From assembly GCA_002238945.1 (NCBI GenBank), contig MPNI01000010.1, positions 971 to 64,970 of the forward strand: a stretch of DNA of 64,000 bases, given 5' to 3'. Shown one piece after another: positions 1 through 64,000 of this stretch. The notes beneath the pieces are model-generated. The model was not told where the DNA came from. It searched no databases and worked only from the letters and a program-made list of their open reading frames with translations. Source of the DNA: Proteobacteria bacterium bin106. GTDB lineage: Bacteria; Bdellovibrionota_B; Oligoflexia; Oligoflexales; Bin106. The translations under genes were made by a program, and so were the position numbers. Numbering within the stretch: position 1 is the stretch's first letter; the number at the start of each line of letters is the position of its first letter.

Positions 1-48
1 CATACTTCTAACTGTGATGGTTTATAGGTTGTTGTATCAGTGTGATCA

Positions 49-972
49 TCAATGGGGAACGATGCGTCGTAAGGTGTGTGTTGGCTGGGGCTTGTGTAGC
101 TTGTGGATAGGTAGACGTGCATCTTTGAGTCCTGTAAATTGATCGGTTCTTACGCCTTGTTTTTTAGCTATCTGGCGGATGATATAACCTTCTTTTTCTG
201 CCATAGGATCTTGCTTGTGCCATTGTTTGAAAGTAGTGATTTCTTGTGAGCTAAATAGCTCATAGGTAGCGTAAGCTTCATGAAGATAGAGCATCATTCG
301 AGCTATATCTCCTCTGGTTTGTGGTGGTGGAGAGAAGGTTTTATCCTGAAAGCTAATGGAGCATTTGTAAGTGGCTTTAGAGGATGAGGCAAGCATTTCA
401 GCAAAGTTAAACCATTTACTCCCTCTGAGTCTGTTGAGCTTTTTAACCACTGGACGGATATTGAACATATCACTTTCAAAATGAGCGAAAAGCTTGATTT
501 TTTTGGTGAGGCATTTACGCCCTAAGGTAGGGCACATAGAGCGCATTAAGGGGCCTATCTTGTGTTGTAGACGCTCTTTTAAACGTTGCATGGGATAGAG
601 ATGATCAAATTCCACTGTTGTCTTTGGCTCATAGAATGCATAATTTTGCCATAACGAACATTTTTCCACATGGGCGTAGGGCATCTTCAAGGGACAGCCG
701 CAATAAAATGATGTAGGAATATATTTATAGATATCTTTGAGGTAGCGCTTTGCGCTACTAAAAGAAGAGTGGCGATGGGAAGCTTTGTTGCTGAGTACAT
801 ATGCTGAAGAGGTATGAGGCTTTGCTGTTTGGCTATCTTTAGTTAAACCTTCTGCTAAACCTTCTGCCAAACAAGGAGATGGGGGGAGTAGTTGTATGTG
901 AATGTAGACAAGAGATAGAGTATATAGAATATAGAAAAAAGAGACATGTATCGATTGAGTAATGATCTTCAT
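49..972 (-). CDS. Endonuclease I family secreted/periplasmic DNase (EndA/Vvn-like)
   Basis: 307-aa ORF. Motifs FYCGC, EFDHLYPM (cf. EWEHVVPA), DMFNIRP..NRLRGSKWF (cf. DLHNLxPxxGxxNxxRSN) and PPQTRGDIARMMLY. Hydrophobic N-terminus. Confidence 0.8.
   Translation of the reverse strand: MKIITQSIHVSFFYILYTLSLVYIHIQLLPPSPCLAEGLAEGLTKDSQTAKPHTSSAYVLSNKASHRHSSFSSAKRYLKDIYKYIPTSFYCGCPLKMPYAHVEKCSLWQNYAFYEPKTTVEFDHLYPMQRLKERLQHKIGPLMRSMCPTLGRKCLTKKIKLFAHFESDMFNIRPVVKKLNRLRGSKWFNFAEMLASSSKATYKCSISFQDKTFSPPPQTRGDIARMMLYLHEAYATYELFSSQEITTFKQWHKQDPMAEKEGYIIRQIAKKQGVRTDQFTGLKDARLPIHKLHKPQPTHTLRRIVPH
845..872. repeat. In-frame 12-bp tandem repeat (aaaccttctgcY x2.3) encoding LAEG-LAEG in the N-terminal region of the endonuclease
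   Basis: Direct reading of positions 845-856 and 857-868, with a partial third copy. Confidence 0.85.
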
Positions 973-1044
973 AGAGATGAGCTTTTAGTGATAAGTGAGC
1001 AGATGAGTAAAACAGGATGAATCAGCGCAAGAGATAGAACATAT

Positions 1045-2244
1045 ATGAATCAGCGGGTAGAAAAAAATATTCACTTTTTGACAAGTACTTATCCTCCTTA
1101 TCGTGGTGGTATCGGTTTTCATACCGTGAACCTTGCCCGTGGGCTTTCTGCTCGCGGCTATCGTGTTTTCATATGGAGTGCTTTTGATAAATCTCAACGT
1201 CAAAAATCTCGAATATTTATAGATGATTTTCCAGTTACACTCAATGATCTGGGTGCAGATTGGAGCTTAGAAGCTTTTAGCAAGGTCCGTAAGGCCATAC
1301 TTGAGTATCCTGGGGATGTGATGATTCAATATCGTCCTCATGCTTTTCAGGTTCGGCAAAGTTATGAGTTGAGAGCTTTTGTAAAAAAACTCTCAAAGCT
1401 GTCATCAGTAAGATTGCATATTGTGGCTCATCGTCTCTTTGAGTGGCCTCAGATACGCAGTGGTTACATGTGGCGACTGTGGGCTCCTCTTTCTCAGTTA
1501 TTGACTTTGCGTCATCTCCTGCGTCACTCACGGTGCTTTTATCTGACATCCACCCATCTCTCTGGGATGGCTAAGGTATGTCTTATGGGCAAAAAAAAGC
1601 AGTATCTTCCTGTGTCAAGTTATATCTATTCCAAAGTGAATGATGTGAAAACAGAGAATCTTAACAAGGCTTTTAGACAACAGAGTTCGTTTATTATTGG
1701 CACTTTTTCGAGTTTCATTGAACTGAGAGTACTCGATATTCTCTCAGCAGTACTGGCGGTCCTTCTAAGACATCATCCTACGTGGAGGTGGTTATTCTTT
1801 GGTCGTTACTCTCAAGGTTTTGTCAAATTTTTGCAAGGTAAATATCCAGCTCTGAGTGAGCGCATGGATTATGCTGGGGAATTGGACCTGCAAGCTTTGT
1901 CAGCTCATATTCAGATTTCTGATGTGATCTTTCAGCCTTACGATCGAGGAGTAAGTACACGGCGTACTACAGCCATGGCTGTTTTAGATCATGGTATTCC
2001 TATGGTGACATCTTCGGGTGTGTATACAGAACCCATATGGTATCAATCAGGTTGTGTGGAGTTAGTGGATGATAATAATGTGGATGGTTTTATTCAAGCC
2101 ATCGAAGGTCTTGCTGGATCAGAAGATAAATGCAAGGAGCTTTCTGTGCGTGCTAGGCAAACATATGAAAAATACTTTTCTTTACAAAAAAGTATGGAGA
2201 TCATCGAAGGATGTTCTGTATCTTCTCGTTCTCGCCTTCTCTGA
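1045..2244 (+). CDS. Glycosyltransferase, GT-B fold (family 4-like)
   Basis: 399-aa ORF. The N-terminus FLTSTYPPYRGGIGFHTVNLARGLSARGYRV is typical of GT4 enzymes. A C-terminal acidic motif region (GIPMVTSS..E..VELVD) is present. Confidence 0.6.
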   Translation: MNQRVEKNIHFLTSTYPPYRGGIGFHTVNLARGLSARGYRVFIWSAFDKSQRQKSRIFIDDFPVTLNDLGADWSLEAFSKVRKAILEYPGDVMIQYRPHAFQVRQSYELRAFVKKLSKLSSVRLHIVAHRLFEWPQIRSGYMWRLWAPLSQLLTLRHLLRHSRCFYLTSTHLSGMAKVCLMGKKKQYLPVSSYIYSKVNDVKTENLNKAFRQQSSFIIGTFSSFIELRVLDILSAVLAVLLRHHPTWRWLFFGRYSQGFVKFLQGKYPALSERMDYAGELDLQALSAHIQISDVIFQPYDRGVSTRRTTAMAVLDHGIPMVTSSGVYTEPIWYQSGCVELVDDNNVDGFIQAIEGLAGSEDKCKELSVRARQTYEKYFSLQKSMEIIEGCSVSSRSRLL

Positions 2245-2331
2245 TAGGACCATACATATGACAAGATAGAATATGTTGAGATGAGATATGTTTAGAGACA
2301 ATACATGATGGAGTCTTGAGGATATGCATCT

Positions 2332-4308: not shown

Positions 4309-4319
4309 TATGTACGCAT

Positions 4320-6269: not shown

Positions 6270-6662
6270 TGTATAGGTCATCTTTGAGGCACTATGATGT
6301 GTCTTTGCTTGTGTGGATAAGCGATAAGTAAAGACAAAGAGACGAGTGCTTTCAGTGCTTATCTGTACGTCTAAGTAGCAAAAACATCTCAAAACGTGAC
6401 TTGCTTAGCTTATTTAGATTACTTAGCTTGCTTAGCTTGGTGGTGTCGTAAGAAGATCAACAGTACGCCTTATGAGTGGAATACTAAAGGGCACAAACTC
6501 CAAACCTGACTCAGTGGATGTATTCATAGGAACATAGTCATAAGCAGATGATGTGTGCTGCTATTTTCTGTATTGTATATAGCGTACAATGAGCTCGTTT
6601 ATAGCACTATGAGGTAGCGCAAACAGGTATTGTTAAATATTATGTTTTTTTATACGAAGTGC

Positions 6663-6691
6663 TTGACTTTTATTTTATGGCAGGCTAGAAT
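6663..6691 (+). promoter_or_regulatory. Near-consensus sigma70-type promoter (TTGACT-17 nt-TAGAAT) with no ORF behind it
   Basis: ttgact at 6663-6668, a 17-nt spacer, tagaat at 6686-6691. An AAGGAG at 6724-6729 is not followed by a start codon. The next credible CDS starts at 7911. Confidence 0.4.
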
Positions 6692-6790
6692 GCCGCAGAT
6701 CAATACCGTTTTGAAACTCTTTTAAGGAGAAAAAGAACACGAATATCTCAGAAGACAAAGATAGATAGGCGTTTGGCCTGATAGCGTGCG

Positions 6791-6844
6791 TAGCTAGTTA
6801 GTTAGTTAGTTAGTTAGCTAGTTAGTTAGTTAGCTAGTTAGTGA
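6791..6844. repeat. TAGT/TAGC tetranucleotide-based tandem array
   Basis: tagctagttagttagttagttagttagctagttagttagttagctagttagtg read directly. Confidence 0.9.
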
Positions 6845-6886
6845 GACTTATGGAGATTGGCTCATACTTGCTGACATAGGCGACTC

Positions 6887-6919
6887 TAGGTTAACTCTTA
6901 GGTTAACTCTTAGGTTAAA
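6887..6919. repeat. 12-bp tandem repeat taggttaactct x2.7
   Basis: Direct reading. Confidence 0.9.
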
Positions 6920-6935: not shown

Positions 6936-6959
6936 GAGAACTAGTGAGAGAACTAGTAA
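6936..6959. repeat. 12-bp tandem repeat gagaactagtRa x2
   Basis: Direct reading. Confidence 0.8.
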
Positions 6960-7279
6960 GAGATAACAAGATGAGATCACTTTACTACTTTACTCACAGC
7001 ACAATGAACACAATGAGTCTGTGCCATATTTTAAATGTGAAGTAATGATAGATAGTGATACATAGCTGATACATAGCAAATAAGAATAGCAATAAGAGAA
7101 TAAGAGTGAGTAAAAAGTAAAAGTAATTATAAAGAAAAGAAGCAAATATTGATAATAGATATAAATAATAGAAAAAAGTAAAATCGACCTTGAAATAGAT
7201 GTAAATATAAGTTATGACTAGGTATGATTGATTCAATATGATCCATGATCAAAGGGATGTGAAGTTATAAATATAAAGC

Positions 7280-7318
7280 ACATGAAAAGAACACATGAAA
7301 AGAACATATGAAATAAAC
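7280..7318. repeat. 13-bp tandem repeat acatgaaaagaac x3 (third copy degenerate)
   Basis: Direct reading. Confidence 0.85.
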
Positions 7319-7404
7319 AATCATATAATTATGAGCTTAGTGATTTTGTAGGCGTGCGTGTAAGTAGCTTAAATAGGCTCAAAGTAGTTTAAATAGCTAA
7401 AAAA

Positions 7405-7449
7405 TGACTAAGACAATGACTAAGACAATGACTAAGACAATGACTAAGA
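7405..7449. repeat. 12-bp tandem repeat tgactaagacaa x3.75
   Basis: Direct reading; the copies are perfect. Confidence 0.95.
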
Positions 7450-9579: not shown

Positions 9580-10440
9580 ATGTATCCTTGTATTTTAGAC
9601 AACTGGGTATCCGGCTTGGCTCGTTATGGAAGTGTGCTTTGTGCACTATTTGTGCTTGGATCATGTGGTAATGCTGTTCTCGAGAAAAATACGAAAAGTG
9701 AAGTAGATGGTGCATTTTTTGAAGAAAGCGATGCATTAGGAGAAAAAGCCAAAGATCATTCAAGAATAGTTATATTGCTGTTAGGGGATTCTTTAACGTA
9801 TGGTTATGATTTAAGTGATCCTAAAAAAAATGCTTATCCAGGAGTTGCTACAGATCTCTTATCAAAGAAGGGTTATGATATCACACTAATTAGTGGCCCT
9901 GGTGATCTTGAGACTTTTTTAGCTAAAAATAGAGTCAAGAACTATATGCAAGCTGTTGAGAGTCATGATATCACTTTGATCAATGCCAGTGTTCCAGCAG
10001 TATTAGCAGAATTTGGTGTACAGGCATTGAAGGTGGCACTGAAGTTTTATGAAGAAGCCGGTATAACTCACGTGTTCATTGCCTTGGGTGCTAATGATGG
10101 TTTGAAGCTAGTTTCTGTAAGATTGATCAATAAATTCATTAATGACATCATTAAAGAAGTCAAATATCAGGGAATGAAGCCATTGCTTGGAGGCATGAAG
10201 ATGCCTCCTTCTGATAAATATGTGCACTTTCAGCGATACGATACAGCAGGTTTTGCTGCTATTTTTCCATCTTTAGCCCAAAAGCATAACATTCCATTAT
10301 GGGAATTTATCCTCAAAGATGTAGCTTTAAAGAAGAAATACAATCATGGTGACAAAATTCATCCAAATGTTGAAGGTCATAAGATCATAGGTAGGCATTT
10401 TGCTTCTTTTTTGCAAAAGCATGTGCTCGATTCACGGTAA
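9580..10440 (+). CDS. SGNH/GDSL hydrolase lipoprotein (TesA/arylesterase-like), paralogue 1
   Basis: Block I LLLGDSLTYGY, block III LGANDG, block V GDKIHPNVEGH. Lipobox VLGSC. The ORF is open from GTG 9493; I prefer Met 9580. Confidence 0.8.
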   Translation: MYPCILDNWVSGLARYGSVLCALFVLGSCGNAVLEKNTKSEVDGAFFEESDALGEKAKDHSRIVILLLGDSLTYGYDLSDPKKNAYPGVATDLLSKKGYDITLISGPGDLETFLAKNRVKNYMQAVESHDITLINASVPAVLAEFGVQALKVALKFYEEAGITHVFIALGANDGLKLVSVRLINKFINDIIKEVKYQGMKPLLGGMKMPPSDKYVHFQRYDTAGFAAIFPSLAQKHNIPLWEFILKDVALKKKYNHGDKIHPNVEGHKIIGRHFASFLQKHVLDSR

Positions 10441-10642
10441 TATGGCTTTTGCTATCAGCGGAGATGAAGAATAATGCTGCAACATCGGAAAGAATATTTT
10501 TTGTGGTTCCTATGTGTATGGAAGCTAATTACATGTATGTGTTGAGTCATCTTATATATAGCTAGTTTAACTGGTATTTTGAGGCAGTTCAAAAGATGAG
10601 TGAAGCTTAAAAGCTAGAGACAACAGAGAGGATAGAGGGTTG

Positions 10643-11587
10643 ATGATACGTACAAAGTATCGCAATTTTATGCCATTCTTTGAAAGAGATGGATTGTTTT
10701 GGGGCCTCTTTGTTGCGTTCTTTTTGGTACTGTCATGTGATGGTTCATCTGTTGATGAAGACCCAAATATCCATAAAAAAGGAGATCCTCATCTTCGTGC
10801 TGAAGATAGTGCAAAGAAGAAAGATACAGAAGATATAGAAGAGACAGATAACAATAAAGATACAGGTCAGAAAACAGCACAGAGGGAAGGCAAGAAGAAT
10901 ACAGATCAGAAGAAGGTGGTATTGTTGTTGCTGGGTGATTCTCTTACTTTTGGTTTTATGTTAGGGCAGCCTGCAAAGCATGCTTATCCTGCAATTGCTA
11001 GAAATCTCTTATCAGCGAAGGGCCATAGTATCACCTTGATTAACGATCCTAGTGATCCTTTTAATCTTTTTCAACAAGATAGAGTCAAGAACTATGTGGA
11101 AGCCGTTGAGAGTCATGATATCACTTTGATCAATGCCAGTGCTCCGGCAGTACGTGCAGAACATGGGGTGAGTGCATTGCTTGCGGCACGCGCCTTATAT
11201 GAGGAAATTCAGATAACTCATGTGCTTCTTGCTTTAGGGGCCAATGAGGGGTTAAAGCGGGTTTCAGTGTCTAAGGTTCGTAGTGATATTGATAACATGA
11301 TTCGTGAGGTTAAATCTCTTGGTATGGAGCCATTGCTTGGCGGTATGAAGATGTTTCCTCCAGAGCGATTTCCTCAGTACCAAGAGTACACTCCAGACTT
11401 TGATGCTATGTTCCCAGATTTATCGAATAAGTATGATATTCCGTTATGGGATTTTATTCTTAAGGATGTAGCTTTAAAGAACGAATACAATCTTGTTGAT
11501 GGGATTCATCCTAATATTGAAGGTCATAAAATTATAGGTAGATACTTTGCTTCTTTTTTGCAAAAACATTTACTCAAACCAATATAG
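10643..11587 (+). CDS. SGNH/GDSL hydrolase lipoprotein, paralogue 2
   Basis: The same blocks (LLLGDSLTFGF, LGANEG, VDGIHPNIEGH), lipobox LVLSC. Collinear with paralogue 1, including the 3' flank. Confidence 0.8.
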   Translation: MIRTKYRNFMPFFERDGLFWGLFVAFFLVLSCDGSSVDEDPNIHKKGDPHLRAEDSAKKKDTEDIEETDNNKDTGQKTAQREGKKNTDQKKVVLLLLGDSLTFGFMLGQPAKHAYPAIARNLLSAKGHSITLINDPSDPFNLFQQDRVKNYVEAVESHDITLINASAPAVRAEHGVSALLAARALYEEIQITHVLLALGANEGLKRVSVSKVRSDIDNMIREVKSLGMEPLLGGMKMFPPERFPQYQEYTPDFDAMFPDLSNKYDIPLWDFILKDVALKNEYNLVDGIHPNIEGHKIIGRYFASFLQKHLLKPI

Positions 11588-13540: not shown

Positions 13541-13580
13541 TAGGTCTTCTTTGTTTCCTAGGTCTTCTTTGTTTCCTAGG
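13541..13580. repeat. 18-bp tandem repeat taggtcttctttgtttcc x2.2
   Basis: Direct reading. It lies in the open frame upstream of the KH core and would encode KEDLGN x2. Confidence 0.85.
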
Positions 13581-13956
13581 TTTTTTATAACATCTACCAC
13601 AGTAGCAACTCCTAGATTCGAATGTGCAGCAACAACATGGATCAACAGCAAGTGAGAGCAAAGAACATGGCACATGATAGCATTGAGCATTCCCATCGCG
13701 CTCTTAAGTCTATCACAGTTTTTCAAAGTTAGGCATGAGTTGCAGGGTAGGGATGGGTTTTAAAAAAGAGGAGCTGCAGTAAGACAGAAGAGCCACAAGA
13801 TAAGAGTGGAAAAGAAGCAGGTGTTTAAGATTTGTTTTTCTTAGTACCATCAGGCTATAATGTGTTGCTGTAACATGATTTTAAAGAGATCAGCCACAAG
13901 ATGATGTGACTGGTGATGTATGTTCAACATTTTTTGAGATGAAAGAGTAGACAATT

Positions 13957-17911: not shown

Positions 17912-17967
17912 GTTTTCATGACTAGTTTTCATGACTAGTTTTCATGGCTAGTTTTCATGGCTAGTTT
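17912..17967. repeat. 13-bp tandem repeat gttttcatgRcta x4.3 in the ileS leader
   Basis: Direct reading. It lies 33 nt upstream of the ileS start. Confidence 0.95.
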
Positions 17968-42928: not shown

Positions 42929-42982
42929 TCATTATAACATGATGTTAGCATCGAAATTAATTAACATAAGGAACAATTAGCC

Positions 42983-43888: not shown

Positions 43889-44384
43889 GTAAAAAATGTT
43901 TTATGCTTTAATTCAAAGCATATTGTGGGTCGATCATTATAAGAATGTTTTGTCTTTATTTATTGTCAAAAAAACATCATTTACGATGTCTTGATTACAC
44001 ATAAGATAAATATATTTATTACTGATAAGGTTAACCGTTTTAAAAACTGTTAATCTTATTTGCGTTGATTTTTTTGTGTAACCTCAATTTGAGTGTTTAA
44101 TGCCAAAAGTTTTATAGATATTTTAAAATATGTCTTCGTAAATCCAGCTTTGATGTTGTCGAAGACAGCATAGCGACTAACTTCTTTTAAATTTAAATAA
44201 GCTTAATGCTTTTTTATAGACTTGAATGAAACCAGATTAATTAGATATTTATTGACAGAAGTTTCACAAAATTTGTGGATTGATAATAGATGTTATTAAG
44301 TGTTTTTAGGACATGATAACCTTTAACGGCATGCATTTTTATAAATGATAAAACTTATGGTTATTTAATGTGCATTTTATATTT

Positions 44385-45008
44385 TTAATAAGCATCTTGT
44401 TGTTTAGCTTTTAACGATTTGGGGAAAAGTGAGGAGCAAACTTTTTGCACAGGGTGATCAGTATCATTTAGGTCTTCTGGACTATCGTTTAAGTAAGCCG
44501 TATTTATGTCTTTTTTTGTTTTTATTTGTTCTATGGCATCATTTAGATGATTTTTGCAATGTTCTTGATTCTCTAAGCGCACATTGCAGAGATATTTAAT
44601 ACCACAGTAGCGTTGAGAAAAAATAAGTTCTTCGGGATCGTCGTGAAACCAAAGAATACAGTCTAAGAATTGATAATGTTTACTTAAATTATTTTTTGCA
44701 AAAAGTTCTGATCGAGATATATCCGTAATCTTGTTTTTTGTTACAATTTTTCTGGTAGGTTCTATTTCTTTCGTTTTGTTACATTGAAGATATTGATAAT
44801 AGTAGGCAAAGCCTGGTAAAGTTTCTGCGTTAATATTGCGGTGTTGATCTCCTGATTCACCAGTAACTTCCATGGCCTTAACGCCTGAATGGTTAGTCTT
44901 TGCTTCTTGGCAGGCAATAGTAATGCATAATATGGCTAAGAAGTGTGCTGTATTATTTAAGGAGTAATAACAGCTCTTGGTTGGTATTTTTTTGTATGCA
45001 TGATTCAT
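44385..45008 (-). CDS. Hypothetical Cys-rich lipoprotein (low-GC island)
   Basis: Lipobox ITIACQE; several Cys residues in the mature part. Confidence 0.45.
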   Translation of the reverse strand: MNHAYKKIPTKSCYYSLNNTAHFLAILCITIACQEAKTNHSGVKAMEVTGESGDQHRNINAETLPGFAYYYQYLQCNKTKEIEPTRKIVTKNKITDISRSELFAKNNLSKHYQFLDCILWFHDDPEELIFSQRYCGIKYLCNVRLENQEHCKNHLNDAIEQIKTKKDINTAYLNDSPEDLNDTDHPVQKVCSSLFPKSLKAKQQDAY

Positions 45009-45063
45009 CGTGTTTCTTTTCGTTTAATTGTAAAATAACTGACTACATAAGATGTTCATTTTA

Positions 45064-46890
45064 TTATCGACAATCAAGTTCACTAATTGAATAATCATCA
45101 CTTTGTCTTGTAGTTACTTTGTGATTGCTACCATCTCTTTCATTGCTATCATTTGGTTCGTCATCTTCTTGCTTTTGGTTTTCTGGTTGTTGTGTTTCTT
45201 GAGGTTTGTCTGCTATTTGAATGTCTTCTCCATTATTATCATTTTTTTCTTCTATTGCAGGTGTGTGATCTTGAGGATTATTGTTTGGTTGTTCGATGTC
45301 TCTTGTATCATCACCGGTACGTCTATTGCTACTAGGTGGACTTACAGATGGAATAGTGACCTTAGAGTTTGAGCGTGGTGTTTCATCGTCATCATCACTG
45401 GGTCGGGTTTTATCAGATCTCCGGTTTTTTTTAATTCGGCTATAACTATAAGCTGGGTCAATAGGTCCATGAGATGTGCTGTATTCTTGATTGTTTTTGG
45501 AATACAGGGCTGCTATTATATCATAGCCTTTATTTTCATTTCCAACAATTAATAATGATCCACTAGAACCTTGCTTAATTTCTGTATTTGAAAATACTAG
45601 AGATATTCCCCAATGTCTGATAAAAATAGATGATATTCTACCAAATAGCTCTATAGAGCTATTATTATTGCCTGGTTGATTTTTGTTGTAATTGAGTTGT
45701 AAATTTTTATAACGATAAGCTTTGTCGTTGTTATCTTTATAGAATGTTAATAAGCGAATTTCGTATTTTTCATATCTGCCACCTAGTTCATATACAGTTA
45801 CTTTGAAATCATCCTCTTCATCTGCTGTGCCATGATTAATCTCGGCTTCTACGTCTTTGTAAGTTTGCTGCATAATATCTCTAAATGCCAATTTGTGTTG
45901 CTTTTCAATTTCTGATTCTGACCTCTCATTCTGTTGTTCGTCATAACTATTTGCTAAGAGTGCTTCTTCGTGAAATGATATAACGGATTTATTCCATGTT
46001 GATTGACGTTGAAGATGTTTACCTATATTCAAAGGAAGATATATAATTTCTTTTTTTGAGTTTTGGGTTGTTAAGTGAGATTCTTTCAAGCAGTTATGAG
46101 TCGATTTCGAGTTAAGGTAAAATGTGTCTAAATTGATCTTAAAAAATACAACATCATTTGAAAGAAAACAGGCATTAGCATATGTACTTTGAGTATCTTG
46201 ATGTTCTTGTTTTGATTCATTTATAAAAGCATCAAATCGTTTATAGTTAGAGCTTTCCGCGCTTGTTTGAGAATGCAAAGAAGAGGTGGTACAAGCCTTG
46301 CGATCAAAATCTATGTTGAAACTTTTAATATTTTTGACTATATCATCTGAGATTTTGGTGTTTTTTTGAAGCTCTCTAATCATCGAAGTATCATCAGGGT
46401 TGGCAATGTTTAAGGTTTTTTCTAACCATATTCTGTCGTGATCAGCCATGTTGATGGATGGATCTTGTCTTTTAAGATCTTGGATTTTTTGATGGAGTTT
46501 TATGAGGTAGTCTGAATCCTCAATCTTAAAGGGAACTCTGACGGAATATGCCTTTCTGCCTTCTTGTGTTTGGCATTCTGAGTCAGAGGCAACATTGATG
46601 TAGAGAGCAAGTTTACTCTCTTTTTCAGTGTTGTATTGATCTACCATGTTGCGAACACAGTGATATGCCGTTCCGATATATGCACTGAGTTCTCCGTCCT
46701 CTTCTTCAAGAGAGACAATGGAGCCACAAGAATTGATGCTAGCTGCGTCATCTGTCCAGGTTATATATGCCCCATAGCTGAACTCATTATAAACACTCAG
46801 AGGTACTTCAGCTTCCGCATCGTGATGATCAGTAGCAAGTCTCGTATCACCACAAGGTAATGCTGCGGTGCCTCCTCTCTGAGGACTCAA
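45064..46890 (-). CDS. S1-like serine protease with large insertions and a disordered acidic C-terminus (body of an apparently frameshifted gene)
   Basis: GTAYHCVRN (His), NDVVFFKI (Asp), QGSSGSLLIV (Ser). The only available start is a TTG that overlaps the stop of the upstream 61-aa ORF. Confidence 0.55.
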   Translation of the reverse strand: MSPQRGGTAALPCGDTRLATDHHDAEAEVPLSVYNEFSYGAYITWTDDAASINSCGSIVSLEEEDGELSAYIGTAYHCVRNMVDQYNTEKESKLALYINVASDSECQTQEGRKAYSVRVPFKIEDSDYLIKLHQKIQDLKRQDPSINMADHDRIWLEKTLNIANPDDTSMIRELQKNTKISDDIVKNIKSFNIDFDRKACTTSSLHSQTSAESSNYKRFDAFINESKQEHQDTQSTYANACFLSNDVVFFKINLDTFYLNSKSTHNCLKESHLTTQNSKKEIIYLPLNIGKHLQRQSTWNKSVISFHEEALLANSYDEQQNERSESEIEKQHKLAFRDIMQQTYKDVEAEINHGTADEEDDFKVTVYELGGRYEKYEIRLLTFYKDNNDKAYRYKNLQLNYNKNQPGNNNSSIELFGRISSIFIRHWGISLVFSNTEIKQGSSGSLLIVGNENKGYDIIAALYSKNNQEYSTSHGPIDPAYSYSRIKKNRRSDKTRPSDDDDETPRSNSKVTIPSVSPPSSNRRTGDDTRDIEQPNNNPQDHTPAIEEKNDNNGEDIQIADKPQETQQPENQKQEDDEPNDSNERDGSNHKVTTRQSDDYSISELDCR

Positions 46891-48029: not shown

Positions 48030-49973
48030 TTATTTGAGCTGGTCTACAATGGCCTGATAATCCTCAGCTTTTCCTACCACTTCTTTAGATCCTATAAGAG
48101 CTAATTTGTAATTTTTAAGATACTTTTGAGCTAACTCTTGAATGTCTGTTGGAGTGATTTTGCTAATATCCACAGGATAGTTGATGTAAGAGTTAATGTC
48201 TCTATAATAATGATAATAATGAGCTATATTAGATGCGATAAAATCAGGGGAAGAAGATCGATAATAAAATACAGTAAACTCAAAGTTTCGATATTCATTG
48301 AGTTCATCTCTATCTAATTTTTGGGTTTGAAGCTTTTTGATTTCATCAACCATCAATTGAAGAGCTTTCTTGGTGTATAAGGTGGAAACTTCTAGATAAG
48401 AATGGCCAAGTTCTCCAGCGGAATACACAGCATGGGGAGCATAACTTAGTGAGTGTTTTGAGCGAACACTTTCACCCACTTTTGCATTGAGAATACGGTG
48501 CAGTATGGCAAGACCCACATTGACCTTTGCTGGAGAGCGTTTGCCAGGAACAAGCGATTTAAGTACGGCGTAAGCAGTATCACCTTTTCCTGCATTTTCT
48601 AAATGTTGAACCACAACATCTTCTTTTGATGGCTTAGGGTTTCTTATTGCAATTGCAGCAGATTTGTCTTTGCTATACCAGAAATTTAATTTATCAAAAC
48701 GCGTATTAAGTTTTTGGTCCATATATTTAGCTGGTATAGAAGTTAGAGATATAATTGATGATCGTCTTCCATTAAGAAAGAGACGGTAATAATTGTTCTC
48801 TACTTTTGCCTTGCTGGTGCGTTCAAGAGTTTGTTGCAGTTCCTCGTGAGTGGAGTAATAAGGGTGAGCCATATCATAATAGATAGTGTTAACTAAACTG
48901 TTGACTTGAGTAGACAAGCTACTCTTACAACTACTACTAATAGCGGCTTTAGCATTTTTCACAACTATATCGTATTCTTCTTGATCAAAAGAAGGTTCTA
49001 AGATAACAGAAGAAAATACGTCCAGTCCCTCATCGATATATTCTTTGTCCACAGTCATAGAACACTGCAGCTGAGTAAAAGCATTGCTGCAATTAAATGA
49101 AGGAGAACATGAGAGCGATATAGCATATTTTTCTGTGGCTTCAATAAGCTTTTGTCTAGGATATTTACTACTGCCTTTAGTGATGAGTGCAGCTGCTATA
49201 TAAGGATCAAGACGTGCGTCCTTTGCTAATTCACTGGGGCTTATGTCTATGGAAAATCTCAGATAAGCGATATCAGAATCAATGGTTTTATGAATAGAGG
49301 CTAAGCCAGGTTTTAAAAGCGATACAGTAACACTATCGTCAAATTCATCCATAAACTTTTGAGGAATGCTGATTTCAGGAGTTTTATATTCTGGAGCTTT
49401 CTTTTTGGTCTCCATATCATCACCTGAAGTGGCATCAGCGGATGCTGTCATGTCTTTTGTTGCTTCTTTTGTGGAACTGTTACCGTCTTTCTTGGCTTCT
49501 TTACCTGCCTTAACAGTAGATTGTTTCGCTTGAGGCTCATTTTTTTCTTCTTCGCTGCCAGTACTTGTCTTATCGTTGCTAGCACTGGTTTTATCGCTAC
49601 TAGTACTAGCTTGCTTGGTCTTGTCAGTGTCTTCCTGGCTATTGTCAGCTACTTCAGTGTCAGCTACTTCAGTGTCAGCTACTTCGGCCTTATCTTTTTT
49701 TGTATTCTCATCTACATCTTTTTTTGCTGTTTCTTCTTGGCTAGCTTTAGTACTTTTGGTCTTAGTGTTGTTAGCATTTTGGTCGAGTTTGGTGTAGCCG
49801 TTATTGTCATCTTTCGATGTCTTATTTGATGCTTCATCTGTTGTGTTACCTGATTGTTCTGCTGATTGAGCAGAGCTACATGATACGACCACTGCAAAGA
49901 GAGTCAAAAATATGCTTGTTTTTATCAGCTTGATAAGTCCGTGAGTGGTGTTAAGGTTTCGATAATGTGCCAT
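48030..49973 (-). CDS. M16-like lipoprotein lacking the HxxEH zinc motif, with a Lys/Asp/Thr-rich N-terminal linker
   Basis: Lipobox VVVSCSS. M16-like fold pattern (..ITKGSSKYPRQKLIEATEKYAISL..) with IAAAL in place of HxxEH. The ORF is open to 50018. Confidence 0.55.
   Translation of the reverse strand: MAHYRNLNTTHGLIKLIKTSIFLTLFAVVVSCSSAQSAEQSGNTTDEASNKTSKDDNNGYTKLDQNANNTKTKSTKASQEETAKKDVDENTKKDKAEVADTEVADTEVADNSQEDTDKTKQASTSSDKTSASNDKTSTGSEEEKNEPQAKQSTVKAGKEAKKDGNSSTKEATKDMTASADATSGDDMETKKKAPEYKTPEISIPQKFMDEFDDSVTVSLLKPGLASIHKTIDSDIAYLRFSIDISPSELAKDARLDPYIAAALITKGSSKYPRQKLIEATEKYAISLSCSPSFNCSNAFTQLQCSMTVDKEYIDEGLDVFSSVILEPSFDQEEYDIVVKNAKAAISSSCKSSLSTQVNSLVNTIYYDMAHPYYSTHEELQQTLERTSKAKVENNYYRLFLNGRRSSIISLTSIPAKYMDQKLNTRFDKLNFWYSKDKSAAIAIRNPKPSKEDVVVQHLENAGKGDTAYAVLKSLVPGKRSPAKVNVGLAILHRILNAKVGESVRSKHSLSYAPHAVYSAGELGHSYLEVSTLYTKKALQLMVDEIKKLQTQKLDRDELNEYRNFEFTVFYYRSSSPDFIASNIAHYYHYYRDINSYINYPVDISKITPTDIQELAQKYLKNYKLALIGSKEVVGKAEDYQAIVDQLK
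49644..49688. repeat. In-frame 15-bp tandem repeat gtcagctacttcagt x3 encoding (A/T)EVAD x3
   Basis: Direct reading. Confidence 0.9.
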
Positions 49974-50656: not shown

Positions 50657-51613
50657 ATGAGTGATCGTGCACAAGAGGTGATGTTATTTGCTGGTTCATC
50701 TCATTTGCAGTTGGCTAATAAGGTTGCTACACATTTGGATATCCGTTTAGGAAATGCTTTGGTAACCACATTCTCTGATGGAGAAACCCGTGTGGAATTG
50801 CGTGAGAATGTGCGAGGAGCGGATATCTTTATATTGCAATCTACGGGCTATCCAGCAAATCATCATATTATGGAGGCATTGATCATGGCTGATGCGTGTC
50901 GTCGTGCTTCTGCCAATAAAATCACTCTTGTGACTCCCTATTTTGGCTATGCTCGTCAGGAGCGCAAAAATACGCCTCGTACGCCTATTACAGCTAAGTT
51001 GGTTGCTGATTTGATTGAGAAAGCAGGTATAGATCGTTTGGTGGCTATGGAGTTACATACAGGTGCTATCCAGGGATTTTTCACTGTGCCAGTGGATCAT
51101 CTTTTTGTGAAGCCGGTTTTTGTGGAATATCTTCAAAACACTTTATCTGATGATAAACAGGTGGTGGTGGCTCCTGATGCAGGAGGTGTGGAACGAGCTC
51201 GGGCATATTCTAAGTATTTCGGTAATTCTCTTGTGGTTATGGATAAGCGTCGTGAGCGCCCCAATGAAAGTTCGATCCATCATATTATTGGTGATGTGGA
51301 GGGCAAACACTGTTATGTTGTAGATGATATTGTTGATACAGCAGGAACTTTAGTAGCTGTGGCACAATCACTGATGGATCATGGTGCTTTAAGTGTGAGA
51401 GCTGCTATTGCTCATGCGCTTTTAAGTGGTAAAGCTATTGAAAAAATTGAGGCATCTGCTTTAGGAGAGCTTGTGGTATCTGATTCTTTGCCACTTTCTA
51501 AGGAAGCACAGGCTTGTACGAAGATCACTCAACTGTCAGTGTGTGGTCTAGTGGGGGAAGCCATTAAGCGTATTCATAATCAACAGTCGGTGAGTGCCTT
51601 GTTTATAGAATAG
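50657..51613 (+). CDS. prs: Ribose-phosphate pyrophosphokinase
   Basis: FSDGE, VVAPDAGGVERA, PRPP-binding VVDDIVDTAGT. Confidence 0.95.
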   Translation: MSDRAQEVMLFAGSSHLQLANKVATHLDIRLGNALVTTFSDGETRVELRENVRGADIFILQSTGYPANHHIMEALIMADACRRASANKITLVTPYFGYARQERKNTPRTPITAKLVADLIEKAGIDRLVAMELHTGAIQGFFTVPVDHLFVKPVFVEYLQNTLSDDKQVVVAPDAGGVERARAYSKYFGNSLVVMDKRRERPNESSIHHIIGDVEGKHCYVVDDIVDTAGTLVAVAQSLMDHGALSVRAAIAHALLSGKAIEKIEASALGELVVSDSLPLSKEAQACTKITQLSVCGLVGEAIKRIHNQQSVSALFIE

Positions 51614-51660
51614 TTTATAGAATAGTTTATAGAATAGTTTATAGAGTAGTTTATAGAGTG
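51601..51660. repeat. 12-bp tandem repeat gtttatagaRta x5; the first copy contains the last prs codons and its TAG stop
   Basis: Direct reading. Each copy repeats ttt-ata-gaa-tag in the prs frame. Confidence 0.95.
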
Positions 51661-53433: not shown

Positions 53434-53463
53434 GCTGAGATAACTGAGGCTGAGATAACTGAG
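53434..53463. repeat. 15-bp tandem repeat gctgagataactgag x2
   Basis: Direct reading. Intergenic by my annotation. Confidence 0.85.
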
Positions 53464-53612
53464 GCTAAGAAAACAAAAGCAAAGAAAGCAAAAGCTAAGA
53501 AAACAAGAGGAAGCATGCCTGTAACGGTGGTTTCTTGTCATGATAGATGTGTGTGCTTTTGAGAAAACAGAGAGAATGATAAAATCATCGCCAGCATAGG
53601 GAGGTAATAGAG

Positions 53613-54164
53613 TTGCTTAAAGAGTATGAATTTACTGTGATTACTTCAGTACAAATACCAGAAACAGAGGCTAAAGCCGCGCTTAAAAAGTATGAAGATA
53701 TGTTTACTGTTGATGGTGGTCTTGTGGTAGAAAAGGATGAATGGGGTGTGATGCGTTTAGCTTATCCCATAAAAAAACAATTTAAGGGACGTTATGTTTG
53801 CTACAAGCTTGCAACTACGCACACAGCCATTGCTGCAGCTGAAAAGCTTATGCGTATTGATCAGTGCATTTTGCGTTATTTGAATATTAAGCTTGCTGAT
53901 AGTTTTGATCCATCTTCTATCCCTGCTGATTCTGTTTCATCCCCACAAACTGCAGCTAGTTCTGCAGATAGCTCAGCAGCTAGCTCAGCAGCTAGCTCAG
54001 CAGATAATGCGAAAGCTCTTGAGGAGCCAACTTCAGAGGATTCTGAGCAGCCTGTTTCTGCTCCTGATGATAATTCTGCTTTTGGCGAAGAAGTTACAGA
54101 ACTTTATAGTTCTGATAACACAGATACTCATACAGATACTCCTAAAGACACTCCTAAAGAATAA
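53613..54164 (+). CDS. rpsF: 30S ribosomal protein S6 with an acidic/Ser-rich C-terminal tail of about 85 aa
   Basis: An S6-like core (YEFTVI...WGVMRLAYPIKK...GRYV). TTG start with GGGAGG 9 nt upstream. Confidence 0.85.
   Translation: MLKEYEFTVITSVQIPETEAKAALKKYEDMFTVDGGLVVEKDEWGVMRLAYPIKKQFKGRYVCYKLATTHTAIAAAEKLMRIDQCILRYLNIKLADSFDPSSIPADSVSSPQTAASSADSSAASSAASSADNAKALEEPTSEDSEQPVSAPDDNSAFGEEVTELYSSDNTDTHTDTPKDTPKE
53959..54006. repeat. In-frame 12-bp tandem repeat gctcagcagcta x3-4 encoding SSAA repeats in the S6 tail
   Basis: Direct reading. Confidence 0.85.
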
Positions 54165-54326
54165 TTGACGTGTGTATGTGAAAACATGTTGGTATCTGTT
54201 TGTATGAACAGAAAGTGTGAAGAGGGTGTGGATAGAACTAGATGTAATAGAAGAAACAGAAGAGAAAGAAGAGACAGAAGAAAGAGTATGAACAGTGTAT
54301 CTTAAGATAAAATATGGAGAATGTGA

Positions 54327-54836
54327 ATGAAGGTGATTCTCACCGAAGAGGTACGTAAATTAGGCAAAGTAGGTGATGTGGTAGCTGTAAAAAACGGTTA
54401 TGGACGCAATTATCTCATTCCTAGCGGTAAAGCTATTTTAGCTAATGCATCTAACAAAGCTGAGCTTGAGCATCACAGGCGGGTATTTGAGGCGCGTCGT
54501 TTAAAGTTAAAGCGTCGTGCTGAAGATGTTGCTGATGCTTTGCGTGCTGTGGAGTTGAAGTTTTTGAAAAAAGTGGGTGCTGAAGATAAGATTTTTGGTA
54601 CTGTAACCACTGCTGAGGTGATGGCAAAATTGAAAGATGCTGGCTTTGATGTGGATAAGCGTAGTATCAAGTTACCTGCTGATATCAAACATGTTGGTCT
54701 CTATACTGCAGTCATTTCTTTACCTTCTCAAGTGAGTGCTGAGGTACGTATTCATGTGGAAGCAGAAGGTGGGGTTGCCTTGGATGTTTCATCAGAGCTA
54801 GCTACAGAACAATCACAAGATCAAGATAGTGTATAA
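54327..54836 (+). CDS. rplI: 50S ribosomal protein L9
   Basis: MKVILTEEVRKLGKVGDVVAVKNGYGRNYLIP is a canonical L9 N-terminus. Confidence 0.92.
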   Translation: MKVILTEEVRKLGKVGDVVAVKNGYGRNYLIPSGKAILANASNKAELEHHRRVFEARRLKLKRRAEDVADALRAVELKFLKKVGAEDKIFGTVTTAEVMAKLKDAGFDVDKRSIKLPADIKHVGLYTAVISLPSQVSAEVRIHVEAEGGVALDVSSELATEQSQDQDSV

Positions 54837-56571: not shown

Positions 56572-56610
56572 CAGCAGCTTTCACATAAACCGTGTTACAG
56601 CCTGGGCTTT

Positions 56611-56645
56611 TTATCTGCTTATTTTATCTGCTTATTTTATCTACT
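56611..56645. repeat. 13-bp tandem repeat ttatctgcttatt x2.7
   Basis: Direct reading. Confidence 0.9.
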
Positions 56646-57506: not shown

Positions 57507-58205
57507 GTGGATATGAAGATGCATGAAGAAGATATGAAGCGGAATGAAGAAGAGAAGCTAGAGCCATCAACTTCAGAGCAGCAACCTCCTCCTTTGCCTG
57601 TTGAGGGTGATGAGATGGAAGCAGAAGATTTAGATGACTCACAAGATACGCAAAATTCTCGTGAAGATACAGCTTGTGAAGATACAGCTTGTGAAGGTAC
57701 AGAAAGCTCTTCTTACGTATTGCTTAAGCAGCAATATGATGATCTTGTTTCTCAAAGAGAGCAAGAAAAAGAGCAGTTTATGTTGTTTCGTGCAGACACA
57801 GAGAATCTGCGCCGGCGGCTTAATCGAGAAAAAACAGAAGCACTGCGTTATGCTTTAGAAGCTTTATTTAAAGAAATACTGCCTTGTTTAGATAGTTTTG
57901 AGCAAGCTCTTAATCAGGATCGTAGCTTGGATGCTGGGGCTTTGTTTCAGGGAGTTGAGCTGGTGCATAAAAAGTTGATGGATATTTTAGGACGCCATGG
58001 CTTGAAGCGAGTTGAGGCTTTGAGTCAAGAATTTGATCCCAATATTCATCAAGCTGTGCGTAAAGAAGAATCAGAGGAGGTATCTTCTGAGGTGGTAAGT
58101 GAGGTGTATCAGACGGGTTATTATTTTCACCAACGATTGCTTCGTGCAGCGGTGGTGAGTGTATTAACGCCTCAAGAGTCCCAAGAGTCTGGGCCAGATC
58201 TCTAA
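57507..58205 (+). CDS. grpE: Nucleotide exchange factor GrpE
   Basis: FRADTENLRRRLNREK, FDPNIHQAV. Acidic N-terminal extension. Confidence 0.9.
   Translation: MDMKMHEEDMKRNEEEKLEPSTSEQQPPPLPVEGDEMEAEDLDDSQDTQNSREDTACEDTACEGTESSSYVLLKQQYDDLVSQREQEKEQFMLFRADTENLRRRLNREKTEALRYALEALFKEILPCLDSFEQALNQDRSLDAGALFQGVELVHKKLMDILGRHGLKRVEALSQEFDPNIHQAVRKEESEEVSSEVVSEVYQTGYYFHQRLLRAAVVSVLTPQESQESGPDL
57663..57702. repeat. In-frame 15-bp tandem repeat gaagatacagcttgt x2.7 encoding EDTAC x2 in the GrpE N-terminus
   Basis: Direct reading. Confidence 0.9.
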
Positions 58206-61627: not shown

Positions 61628-61673
61628 TATATAGTTCTTATAATGTGAGTATGGTTTTTGGGTAAATTCTGTT

Positions 61674-61705
61674 GCGTTTACTGATGCGTTTACTGATGCG
61701 CTTAC
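61674..61705. repeat. 12-bp tandem repeat gcgtttactgat x2.6
   Basis: Direct reading. Confidence 0.9.
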
Positions 61706-61801
61706 AAAGAATTCAGCACGCTCGTGGTGTATGGTGCTTGACATATAAGATGTAGACATACATAAGAATAAAGGACCTAGGAGCGCTGATAGTAAGACAC
61801 A

Positions 61802-61865
61802 GTTAAGAGAGGTTAAGAGCAGTTAAGAGCAGTTAAGAGGTTAAGAATAGTTAAGAGAATTAAGG
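61802..61865. repeat. gttaagag motif x7 at 8-10-bp periodicity
   Basis: Direct reading. Confidence 0.85.
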
Positions 61866-61941: not shown

Positions 61942-62148
61942 ATGGGACTTCCAGAAAGAATTGTTAAGTATTTGATTCAGATTATTGTATGGACGGTGAT
62001 TTTTTCGATCCCTTATAAAGATGGGCGGTTGTTTGATTTTAGTCGATCCATTCTCTTTGAAAACGCTGTGGTAGAGACATTTACAAACAGTACTTCTGAA
62101 GTTTTTGATGGTCTTAAAGAATTCTATACGAAGTACCTCAATAGCTAG
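61942..62148 (+). CDS. Possible small membrane protein (68 aa)
   Basis: Non-repetitive composition with one hydrophobic helix (IVKYLIQIIVWTVIFSIP). Weak SD. It competes with an antisense ORF at 61897..62223. Confidence 0.3.
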   Translation: MGLPERIVKYLIQIIVWTVIFSIPYKDGRLFDFSRSILFENAVVETFTNSTSEVFDGLKEFYTKYLNS

Positions 62149-62202
62149 CAGCAAACCATAGCAGCAAACCATAGCAGCAAACCACATTAGCAAGCCATAG
62201 CA
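62148..62202. repeat. 13-bp tandem repeat gcagcaaaccata x3 plus a degenerate copy, starting at the stop codon of the 68-aa ORF
   Basis: Direct reading. Confidence 0.9.
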
Positions 62203-62890: not shown

Positions 62891-62959
62891 AACGACAAGA
62901 GAATGCTGTGTTAGCTTTTTGTTATGGTATCAGTAGCTCTTTTTTTTTGAGATCATGAC

Positions 62960-63661
62960 ATGGATCATCAAAAAATTCTTATTGCTCCATCTTTGTTATC
63001 TGCTGATGTGATGAGGTTAGGTGCTGAAATTGCAGACGTTGAGGCTGCAGGTGCGGATCTTCATCATATTGATGTGATGGATGGACATTTTGTTCCAAAT
63101 CTCACTTTTGGTTTGCCTCTTGTGGAAGCATTGAAAAAATCTGCTAACTTGCCCTTAGATGTGCATTTGATGGTATCTAATCCTGATGCTGTGGTGGCTG
63201 ATTATTTAGCAGCTGGAGCTGATTGGTTAAGCTTTCATGTGGAGGCTGCCGTTCATGCTCATCGTTTGATTCAGACTATTCGTAAGGCAGGAAAAAAGCC
63301 AGGTATTGTGGTTAATCCTGGTACATCTGTGCAGTCTATTTTTCCTTTATTAGAAGATGTGGATTATGTGCTTTTGATGAGTGTTAATCCGGGATTTGGT
63401 GGTCAGCAATTTATTTCTTATACAGAAGAAAAATGTCGTATTTTAGCAAATGCCTTAGTGCAACGTTCTTTGGCAGATAAAGTGTTGATTGAAGTGGATG
63501 GAGGCATCACCCAGTATACGATTGCAAAGATGGCTATTGCGGGTGTGCGGGTGTTTGTGGCTGGTTCAGCTATTTATGGTAAAAAGGAGCGTTGCAAAGC
63601 TATTGCAGCATTAAGGGATGCAGCTCACAGCAGAGATAACTCCTTTTCTGTGAGTGGTTGA
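62960..63661 (+). CDS. rpe: Ribulose-phosphate 3-epimerase
   Basis: HIDVMDGHFVPN, MSVNPGFGGQ, VDGGI. Confidence 0.95.
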   Translation: MDHQKILIAPSLLSADVMRLGAEIADVEAAGADLHHIDVMDGHFVPNLTFGLPLVEALKKSANLPLDVHLMVSNPDAVVADYLAAGADWLSFHVEAAVHAHRLIQTIRKAGKKPGIVVNPGTSVQSIFPLLEDVDYVLLMSVNPGFGGQQFISYTEEKCRILANALVQRSLADKVLIEVDGGITQYTIAKMAIAGVRVFVAGSAIYGKKERCKAIAALRDAAHSRDNSFSVSG

Positions 63662-63913
63662 TGGTTGTTTCAGAGAATATATAAGTCCACAGTATTTACA
63701 GAGTACAGACAGAGTAAAGTCAGTGTACAATGAAGATGTATGTTATACAGAAATGTATCATGGATTGTTTCTAGACTAGAGCATGTATAAGTTATAAGTG
63801 TATAAAGAGCACACAAAGACTATAGAAAGACTATAGAAAACCATGCTCAGGATTTCAGACTGTGGGGTTAAAGCGACATGATGCCAGTGATGACAAAGCT
63901 AACAACCATAATT

Positions 63914-63952
63914 CATAACAGTTATAACAGTTATAACAGCAGTCATAACAGA
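63914..63952. repeat. 9-bp tandem repeat YataacagY x3 plus a spaced fourth copy
   Basis: Direct reading. Confidence 0.8.
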
Positions 63953-64000
63953 TGGTGCTTTCATATTGTGGTCTATGTATGTGCTGTGATGGCAGCAAGT

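Follow-up and report, generated by a model that had tools for sequence, protein, structure and literature searches.

Short locus-unique tandem arrays in a 64-kb chromosomal segment of a sponge-associated bacterium suggest frequent replication slippage under purifying selection

Short head-to-tail tandem arrays occur in the spacers and, at lower density, in the genes of a 64,000-nucleotide stretch of Proteobacteria bacterium bin106 (contig MPNI01000010.1, positions 971 to 64,970), hereafter called the window. They far exceed the chance level, each locus carries a unit of its own, the units inside genes have lengths divisible by three (3n) and lie outside protein domains, copy numbers are polymorphic, the copies decay towards the array edges, and at least one relative is as rich in arrays as the window. 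The arrays are read here as products of a genome-wide, unusually frequent strand misalignment (replication slippage) that is filtered by purifying selection, a reading to which we assign a probability of about 0.72.

Arrays were detected with Tandem Repeats Finder (TRF), whose 111 output rows for the window correspond to 95 non-redundant arrays at a score of ≥30; 38 of these reach a score of ≥50 and 12 a score of ≥80. In thirty shuffles that preserve dinucleotide composition, the same three scores are reached by 12.9, 0.37 and 0.03 arrays on average. The count of perfect repeats, defined by ≥2 units, a period of ≥7 and a length of ≥20 nt, is 39 in the window as compared to 0.25 in the shuffles. 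Ordinary bacteria were represented by 80 unrelated loci (1.29 Mb) among the matches listed in a genome scan with UvrC; their UvrC proteins are 30–36% identical and come from unrelated phyla. At score ≥50 the array density is 0.594/kb in the window versus 0.041/kb in these control loci, and the excess amounts to ~100-fold over the dinucleotide shuffles and ~15-fold over the other bacterial loci. Control loci with a GC content below 0.45 yield 0.044 arrays/kb, the highest control locus of at least 15 kb reaches 0.30 arrays/kb, and each third of the window holds 0.47–0.70 arrays/kb. All 27 arrays listed in the original prediction, 20 assigned to spacers and seven to coding sequences, were recovered by TRF with the same unit lengths and with coordinates within a few bases. 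The density in the window lies far above both the shuffle level and that of other genomes, which confirms that the tandem-repeat excess is real.

Intergenic units are 9–15 bp long with a mode of 12–13 bp, apart from one unit of 18 bp and one of 28 bp; longer units are nearly absent although they are easier to detect. Arrays comprise 2–5 copies and span 25–75 bp. The units are unrelated between loci, as had been predicted: the best circular match among all unit pairs averages 0.615 compared to 0.600 for shuffled units, and no 3- to 5-mer is significantly shared among them after correction for multiple testing. TAG/ATAG and AAGAA were rejected as shared motifs, since neither the occurrence of TAG in 16 units (8.4 expected) nor that of AAGAA in seven (1.2 expected) is significant after correction for 64–1024 tests. 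Outside its own array, a unit is no more frequent in the window than chance predicts. Repetitive extragenic palindromic (REP) elements, miniature inverted-repeat transposable elements (MITEs) and other dispersed families are ruled out, because no one sequence recurs at many loci, and so is an array of clustered regularly interspaced short palindromic repeats (CRISPR), because the units follow each other head-to-tail without spacers between them; neither the Rfam scan nor the gene calls suggest a CRISPR-cas locus in the window. As tRNA and Rfam scans of the window returned no tRNA genes and no Rfam matches, none of the arrays belongs to a known RNA gene. The proposed origin by local duplication thus stands.

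In arrays of at least 2.9 copies, identity to the consensus amounts to 97.7% for inner copies and 91.6% for edge copies, in agreement with the degenerate terminal copies noted earlier. The next unit-length of flanking sequence still shows 43% identity to the consensus versus ~27% for random sequence. A homogeneous interior with decayed edges is the pattern to which repeated internal slippage leads.

Genes and spacers differ in the unit lengths that they contain. At score ≥50 the unit is 3n in 13/13 genic but only 9/24 intergenic arrays (Fisher p=2.3e-4), and one further array at this score, located at the prs stop codon, has a 3n unit as well. The same holds at score ≥40 (15/16 genic versus 16/38 intergenic) and for perfect repeats (9/9 versus 8/29). 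The sole non-3n genic row at score ≥40 has a 17-bp unit and 73% matching, which is at noise level. Between scores 30 and 49, eight non-3n rows fall nominally within genes, including the 17-bp row in an M16 gene, with about two imperfect copies; since shuffles give 12.9 rows at score ≥30, these were not counted as exceptions. The intergenic 3n fraction of about one third is that expected without constraint. The seven coding arrays originally listed, all with 3n units, were confirmed but constitute an incomplete list, and the array at 63914, formerly placed in a spacer, lies inside a called gene starting at 63878, where the rule still holds because its unit is 9 bp.

Spacers hold 1.7 arrays/kb and genes 0.26 arrays/kb, so that coding arrays are 6.5-fold rarer. 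Because genes carry ~2.5-fold fewer arrays per kb even when 3n units alone are counted, selection acts against in-frame insertions also. The drop in density, the shift of the 3n fraction from about one third in spacers to 100% in genes, and the position of coding arrays outside Pfam domains bear out the earlier proposal of one mutational process acting everywhere behind a selective filter.

Placement outside Pfam domains is seen in six proteins, five of which are given in Table 1; in the sixth, a GDSL lipase, the array occupies residues 60–69 and the domain starts at residue 95. Two adjacent paralogous GDSL-lipase genes at 9580–11587 represent a tandem gene duplication, the second of which has an in-frame 9-bp x3 array before its domain. 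Ribosomal protein S6 ends in an acidic C-terminal tail of ~90 residues that consists partly of two tandem arrays. DksA (32641–32850) and GrpE (57513–57720) bear lineage-specific low-complexity N-terminal extensions of 55–70 residues. In DksA, the fivefold ASAKG repeat is found within a ~55-residue extension that is absent from 10 homologues of other organisms; close homologues (55–65% identical) are mostly 144–155 residues long and do not have it. An AlphaFold2 model of DksA shows a confident body, while residues 1–67 have a predicted local distance difference test (pLDDT) score below 50 and no secondary structure. The model supports disorder of the extension but cannot prove it, because the alignment holds no information for this region. 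The tails of S6, GrpE and the M16-like protein are of low complexity as judged by eye.

Such tails are reminiscent of the Borgs, extrachromosomal elements of Methanoperedens whose tandem repeats were described by Schoelmerich et al. 2023 (PMC9879509), and could be explained by positive selection for disordered regions, with the spacer arrays as a by-product of a dedicated repeat-generating polymerase or nuclease system. The coding arrays do encode perfect amino-acid repeats in hydrophilic tails, of which that of DksA is predicted to be disordered, and the narrow range of unit lengths hints at a specific mechanism. On the coding strand the units are A-rich and T-poor as in Borgs (A 0.36 versus 0.30 and T 0.20 versus 0.29 in all coding sequences), but this shift is expected from hydrophilic residues anyway. 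Furthermore, no dedicated enzyme was found, and the proteins concerned have housekeeping roles that their homologues perform without tails. The depletion of coding arrays relative to spacers, which persists for 3n units, indicates net purifying rather than positive selection. As a general explanation positive selection is therefore unlikely, while at individual tails selection for disorder is possible.

Among spacers of at least 100 bp, 17/30 contain an array at score ≥40 and 21/30 at score ≥30; the statement that almost every spacer has its own array was thus overstated, although the majority do. The number of arrays correlates with spacer length (r=0.77). Divergent, tandem and convergent spacers have similar array densities (2.3, 3.0 and 2.3/kb, respectively), without any preference for spacers that contain promoters. 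Both properties argue for a neutral mutational origin and not for a promoter function. Arrays acting as regulatory elements, in which selected copy-number variation tunes the expression of neighbouring genes, might take the form of contingency or phase-variation loci, modulators of promoter spacing, or arrays that bind proteins or give rise to regulatory RNA. Four arrays are indeed polymorphic in copy number, some arrays sit at gene boundaries (just before a protease start at 28521, GrpE start at 57510, prs stop at 51601), and the intergenic repeats of Borgs have been suggested to be regulatory RNAs (PMC9879509). However, the units differ from locus to locus and so cannot share a binding factor, and coding arrays, being always 3n, cannot switch genes by frameshift. 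In addition, the arrays lie next to housekeeping genes instead of surface or virulence genes, 3n units make up the neutral third of the intergenic ones, array edges decay, and the uniform density across spacer types does not fit such a role. A regulatory function of the arrays is therefore held to be quite improbable.

Turnover was assessed by comparing the window to 25 loci that independent assemblies of this organism provide, namely an NCBI metagenome-assembled genome (MAG), three JGI samples, six Logan runs and three ENA assemblies. Apart from a variable gene at 45064–46890, each locus shows 0–2 mismatches, and only four indels are found, all of them whole repeat units within arrays. One 11-bp unit is gained at 7055 in three assemblies and one 13-bp unit at 62184 in two, whereas one 12-bp unit is lost at 51601 in two assemblies and three 15-bp units (45 bp) are missing at 32774 from the NCBI protein and two ENA assemblies. 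The latter change results in DksA length alleles of 201 residues (five copies) and 186 residues (two copies). Each copy-number allele is found in at least two assemblies, and from the way in which the alleles combine, three or more haplotypes can be distinguished. None of the polymorphic arrays has fewer than three copies, and 3/4 are intergenic or located at a gene boundary. With single-nucleotide differences essentially at zero and whole-unit changes as the only indels, turnover is ongoing, as the original prediction had suspected.

Assemblers are known to err at tandem repeats (PMC9879509; PMC6868369), and both the arrays and their copy-number differences could in principle have been created by short-read metagenome assemblers. 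This explanation is effectively refuted. The arrays are base-for-base the same across pipelines and runs (NCBI MAG, JGI, Logan and ENA k141 contigs), all are shorter than 75 bp and thereby shorter than the reads and k-mers used, and every alternative allele recurs in at least two assemblies. Moreover, long-read assemblies of a relative from two samples (L106 and L107) are equally dense in arrays, and their arrays are identical to each other.

Relatives were examined as ~22-kb loci around UvrB or DksA, with arrays counted at score ≥50. The locus represented by L106/L107 (UvrB 64% identical, GC 0.48) has 0.546 arrays/kb and is hence as repeat-rich as the window. Two other relatives are moderately rich, namely L108 (UvrB 65% identical, GC 0.47) with 0.18 arrays/kb and the single organism represented by L110 and L113 (GC 0.29–0.31) with 0.23–0.25 arrays/kb, shuffles giving ~0.03. 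By contrast, L112, the nearest named outgroup of matching GC content, a Bdellovibrionota MAG (GCA_041391425.1, UvrB 58% identical, GC 0.395) that has the ACIII-uvrB-uvrC synteny in common with the window, shows 0 arrays/kb, and even at score ≥40 no array is present in its 22 kb. The units of L106/L107 are 11–16 bp long and their arrays mostly intergenic. In each relative's genome the arrays lie at different loci and have different units, which indicates that the propensity and not the arrays themselves has been inherited. A scan of metagenome contigs with a lineage-specific GT4-like protein found no relatives. Comparison of L106 and L107 reveals nine indels of 1–2 bp, mostly in short homopolymer runs, and one mismatch; the indels are most likely sequencing errors, and no repeat polymorphism is seen between the two. 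The gene of the ACIII molybdopterin subunit is split into several open reading frames in L112 (6523–9118) and L106 (3866–7587) but is intact (1158 residues) in L107; in L106 the split is most likely due to 1–2 bp long-read indel errors.

Under the slippage reading, misalignment would first duplicate a local segment of 9–18 bp and then add or remove whole units, the array interior staying homogeneous and the edges decaying. Purifying selection would remove frame-breaking and domain-disrupting events from genes, in-frame arrays would persist only in tolerant, low-complexity protein tails, and long spacers would collect arrays whatever their unit length; in a population that is clonal and restricted to a host, weak selection may help the arrays to persist. 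As the underlying cause we infer a heritable property of the replication or repair machinery of the lineage. One candidate is the loss or alteration of helicases or single-strand exonucleases that keep in check slipped intermediates whose loops are beyond the reach of mismatch repair; another is a polymerase of low processivity. In E. coli, MutS does not act on loops of more than ~4 nt, RecA is not required for slippage between close repeats, and single-strand exonucleases suppress slippage. This body of knowledge is reportedly owed to Lovett and co-workers and to Viguera et al. in 2001. Slippage has been discussed as the origin of the Borg repeats too (PMC9879509).

Several observations weigh against the slippage reading or restrict its reach. 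A cause in repair or replication genes is inferred from a view of the focal organism that covers the 64-kb window and short flanks, and the window itself encodes intact UvrB, UvrC, DnaB and Lon with no sign of general repair decay. Generic slippage does not predict in detail the narrow unit range of 9–18 bp, which could point to a more specific mechanism. A few arrays situated exactly at gene starts or stops (28521, 51601 and 57510) could have local effects on function. Among the assemblies used for comparison, several derive from one sponge species and some from one specimen, so that the sampled population is narrow. Finally, L108 and L110/L113 only reach about the 95th percentile of the controls, and the trait can therefore be called clade-wide only in part.

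Table 1. Tandem arrays detected by TRF in the window, with strand given for coding arrays.
Position	Strand	Array	Location and remarks
844-872	-	12-bp x2.4 coding, LAEG	Endonuclease_1 protein aa 34-43, N-terminal of domain (matched aa 116-273)
6400-6439		9-bp x4.4 intergenic	
6791-6842		TAGT-based (4 bp x13) intergenic	
6883-6918		12-bp x3.1 intergenic	
6936-6963		12-bp x2.3 intergenic	Score 49
7046-7077		11-bp x3 intergenic	Polymorphic; extra unit TGATACATAGC in three other assemblies
7279-7313		13-bp x2.7 intergenic	
7403-7449		12-bp x3.9 perfect intergenic	
13541-13581		18-bp x2.3 perfect intergenic	Upstream of KhpA-like gene
17912-17967		13-bp x4.3 intergenic	Upstream of ileS
21210-21259	-	12-bp x4.2 coding, AFTA	M16-family protein (hyp505) aa 16-32, before domains (from aa 74)
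21396-21433		13-bp x3 intergenic	
21574-21602		15-bp x1.9 intergenic	
21675-21720		Overlapping 10-bp and 14-bp intergenic	
23874-23931		13-bp x4.5 intergenic	Between purB and purA
26446-26477	-	15-bp x2.1 perfect coding, EEPHA	335-aa protein, aa 43-53
28521-28563		14-bp x3.1	Directly upstream of (2 nt into) Trypsin_2 protease gene start
28721-28747		13-bp x2.1 intergenic	
28976-29010		13-bp x2.7 intergenic	
32774-32847	+	15-bp x4.9 perfect coding, ASAKG	Polymorphic; DksA N-terminal extension
36889-36933	-	18-bp x2.5 coding, acidic EEVEE-type	474-aa protein, aa 114-129
37453-37484		10-bp x3.2 intergenic	
37698-37733		12-bp x3 perfect intergenic	
38439-38467	-	15-bp x1.9 coding, DEELT/DKELT	LeuS aa 757-766; weakest coding case
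49552-49607	-	21-bp x2.7 coding	N-terminal linker of M16-like lipoprotein (arrays aa 97-141, domain aa 263-348)
49643-49685	-	15-bp x2.9 perfect coding, EVADT	N-terminal linker of M16-like lipoprotein
51601-51657		12-bp x4.8	Polymorphic; array start overlaps final codons and stop of prs; two assemblies lack one unit
53434-53506		Two adjacent 15-bp intergenic	
53952-54003	+	12-bp x4.3 coding, SSAA	C-terminal tail of S6, aa 114-131 (domain ends aa 93)
54122-54160	+	12-bp x3.2 coding, TDTP/K	Extreme C-terminus of S6, aa 170-183
56609-56642		13-bp x2.6 perfect intergenic	Convergent spacer
57510-57553	+	21-bp x2.1	Spans GrpE start codon and aa 1-14
57661-57702	+	15-bp x2.8 coding, EDTAC	GrpE N-terminal tail, aa 50-63 (domain from aa 70)
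61669-61705		12-bp x3.1 intergenic	Downstream of lon
61801-61864		10-bp x6.7 intergenic, alternatively 28-bp x2.1	
62146-62202		13-bp x4.4 intergenic	Polymorphic; extra unit in two assemblies
63815-63839		11-bp x2.3 perfect intergenic	
63915-63939	+	9-bp x2.8 perfect	Inside called 267-aa gene starting at 63878

The window, with a GC content of ~0.40, was described from the outset as a chromosome segment rich in core genes, and this description is correct: uvrB, uvrC, ileS, leuS, purA, purB, sucC, sucD, murB, dksA, prs, pth, dnaB, grpE, lon, def and rpe as well as the genes of ribosomal proteins L32, L25, S6 and L9 are present. A map of 47 genes, built from gene calls on contigs identical to the window, gives a coding fraction of 78.3% and a median spacer of 200 bp, with four spacers of 0.9–1.5 kb. 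An NCBI MAG labelled 'Proteobacteria bacterium' (GCA_026712765.1) encodes a protein with 100% identity to UvrB of the window; identity falls to 60–66% for the next relatives and to 56–59% for named ones (Oligoflexales, Bdellovibrionota, Pseudobacteriovorax, Oligoflexus). Contigs identical to the window are found in runs SRR8093131, SRR6214543 and SRR8092756, which according to a preprint are metagenomes of the sponge Aplysina aerophoba.

GC skew ranges from +0.07 to +0.30 in all 2-kb segments of 1–64000 but one (+0.035), whatever the gene orientation. Being uniformly positive, it places the whole window on one replichore, and it denotes an unusually strong strand-specific mutation bias. The variable gene mentioned above (45064–46890, minus strand) lies within a low-GC stretch (42000–46000) and encodes a hypervariable protein of 608 residues in which no Pfam domain was found; it contains a 'GSSGS' motif and an acidic C-terminal tail. 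Compared to a JGI contig of the same organism it differs by 97 nucleotides, 58 amino acids and three in-frame indels over 484 aligned residues, and the contigs of several assemblies, the NCBI MAG included, end within it. Diversifying selection, or recombination among paralogues or strains, could account for this variability. At 53613–54836, rplI (L9) directly follows rpsF (S6), the usual intervening rpsR and ssb/priB being absent. A sigma-70-like promoter (TTGACT-17 nt-TAGAAT), found by eye at 6663–6692 inside the 1.5-kb spacer between uvrC and hyp237, is situated directly upstream of a cluster of eight arrays; this predicted promoter might drive a long untranslated or non-coding transcript.

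The analogies with Borgs and with Ehrlichia ruminantium drawn in the original prediction are apt, with reservations as to array length, base composition and coding density. In Borgs as in the window, units are locus-unique and derived from local sequence, near-perfect copies are accompanied by flanking partial copies, and coding repeats are low-complexity amino-acid repeats in protein tails. All genic units are 3n in both, and the intergenic 3n fraction is 14–38% in Borgs (PMC9879509) and 28–38% in the window. Both also show copy-number variation within a population, all four indels of the window comparison falling in arrays, and both have related genomes without such repeats, namely the host in the case of the Borgs and the outgroup in that of the window lineage. 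Contrary to the giant linear archaeal extrachromosomal elements, however, the window is part of a bacterial chromosome with core genes, and its arrays are much shorter. Only one of them (32774–32847) is perfect with ≥50 nt and ≥3 units, the Borg criterion, which corresponds to 0.016/kb compared to ~0.056/kb in Borgs, where tandem repeats make up 0.6% of the genome (PMC9879509). About one third of the arrays are genic in the window versus about one half in Borgs, where mainly extracellular proteins are affected in place of the housekeeping proteins seen here. Finally, Borg units are strongly enriched in A, whereas the enrichment in the spacer units of the window is weak and not significant (A 0.346 versus 0.311 in the background, z=1.4; T 0.297 versus 0.345, z=-1.9).

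The tandem-repeat plasticity of the E. ruminantium genome (Collins 2005 and Frutos 2006, as summarised in PMC10710844) resembles the situation in the window in that both bacteria are host-associated and have long spacers, non-coding repeats actively expand and contract, and isolates differ in copy number. The coding density of the window (78%) is below that of typical bacteria but less extreme than the ~64% of E. ruminantium (PMC10710844). E. ruminantium is a member of the Anaplasmataceae, to which the window lineage with its nearest named UvrB relatives among Oligoflexales and Bdellovibrionota is unrelated. The E. ruminantium genome is AT-rich, whereas the window has a GC content of 40%. In the nascent symbiont Candidatus Sodalis pierantonius, slippage-dominated indels at short repeats have been attributed to lost recombination and repair components (Clayton et al. 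2016, PMC4948707). Both this organism and that of the window are symbionts with slippage-type indels; for the window lineage the link to repair genes is surmised. S. pierantonius, however, mainly undergoes deletion in G+C-rich repeats and gene inactivation, in contrast to the AT-rich spacer arrays and the in-frame arrays in intact genes described here.

Contingency loci are few per genome, usually have units of 1–8 bp, lie in or before surface or virulence genes and switch them by frameshift. Together with variable-number tandem repeats (VNTRs) and simple-sequence repeats they share with the window arrays a copy-number change by slipped strands and polymorphism between isolates. The window arrays, by contrast, amount to hundreds per Mb, have units of 9–18 bp, are found in or near housekeeping genes and never break the frame. 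In marine Beggiatoaceae, as far as the excerpt of PMC4679880 describes them, intergenic TAACTGA direct repeats likewise form many short arrays in a bacterial chromosome, but there the same heptamer is used at all loci, whereas each locus of the window has its own unit. For sponge-associated Bdellovibrionota-like bacteria no description of this architecture was found in literature searches that did not pair these organisms with tandem repeats specifically. The window thus represents, on a bacterial chromosome and with short arrays, a counterpart of the repeats of Borgs and E. ruminantium and not a new principle.

Gain and loss of repeat units can outpace point mutation as a source of variation in a clonal symbiont population, and for this reason the arrays could serve as strain markers for sponge symbionts. 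The repeats also create low-complexity tails, predicted to be disordered for DksA, in universally conserved housekeeping proteins. Borg-like repeats in a bacterial chromosome, and seemingly in a small clade, together with a repeat-free outgroup of the same GC content constitute a natural comparative design, which could uncover genes or polymerase features that control the birth and turnover of tandem repeats. A more far-reaching and rather doubtful possibility is that this sponge-associated lineage related to Bdellovibrionota and Oligoflexia has evolved a heritable 'tandem-repeat mutator' state, in which a specific change in replication or repair makes slippage of 9–18 bp the dominant class of mutation. 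If so, this state would build spacers and add low-complexity, probably disordered tails even to S6, GrpE and DksA, it would be mechanistically convergent with the repeat-forming process of Borgs, and a comparison of relatives rich and poor in tandem repeats would reveal the responsible gene or genes.

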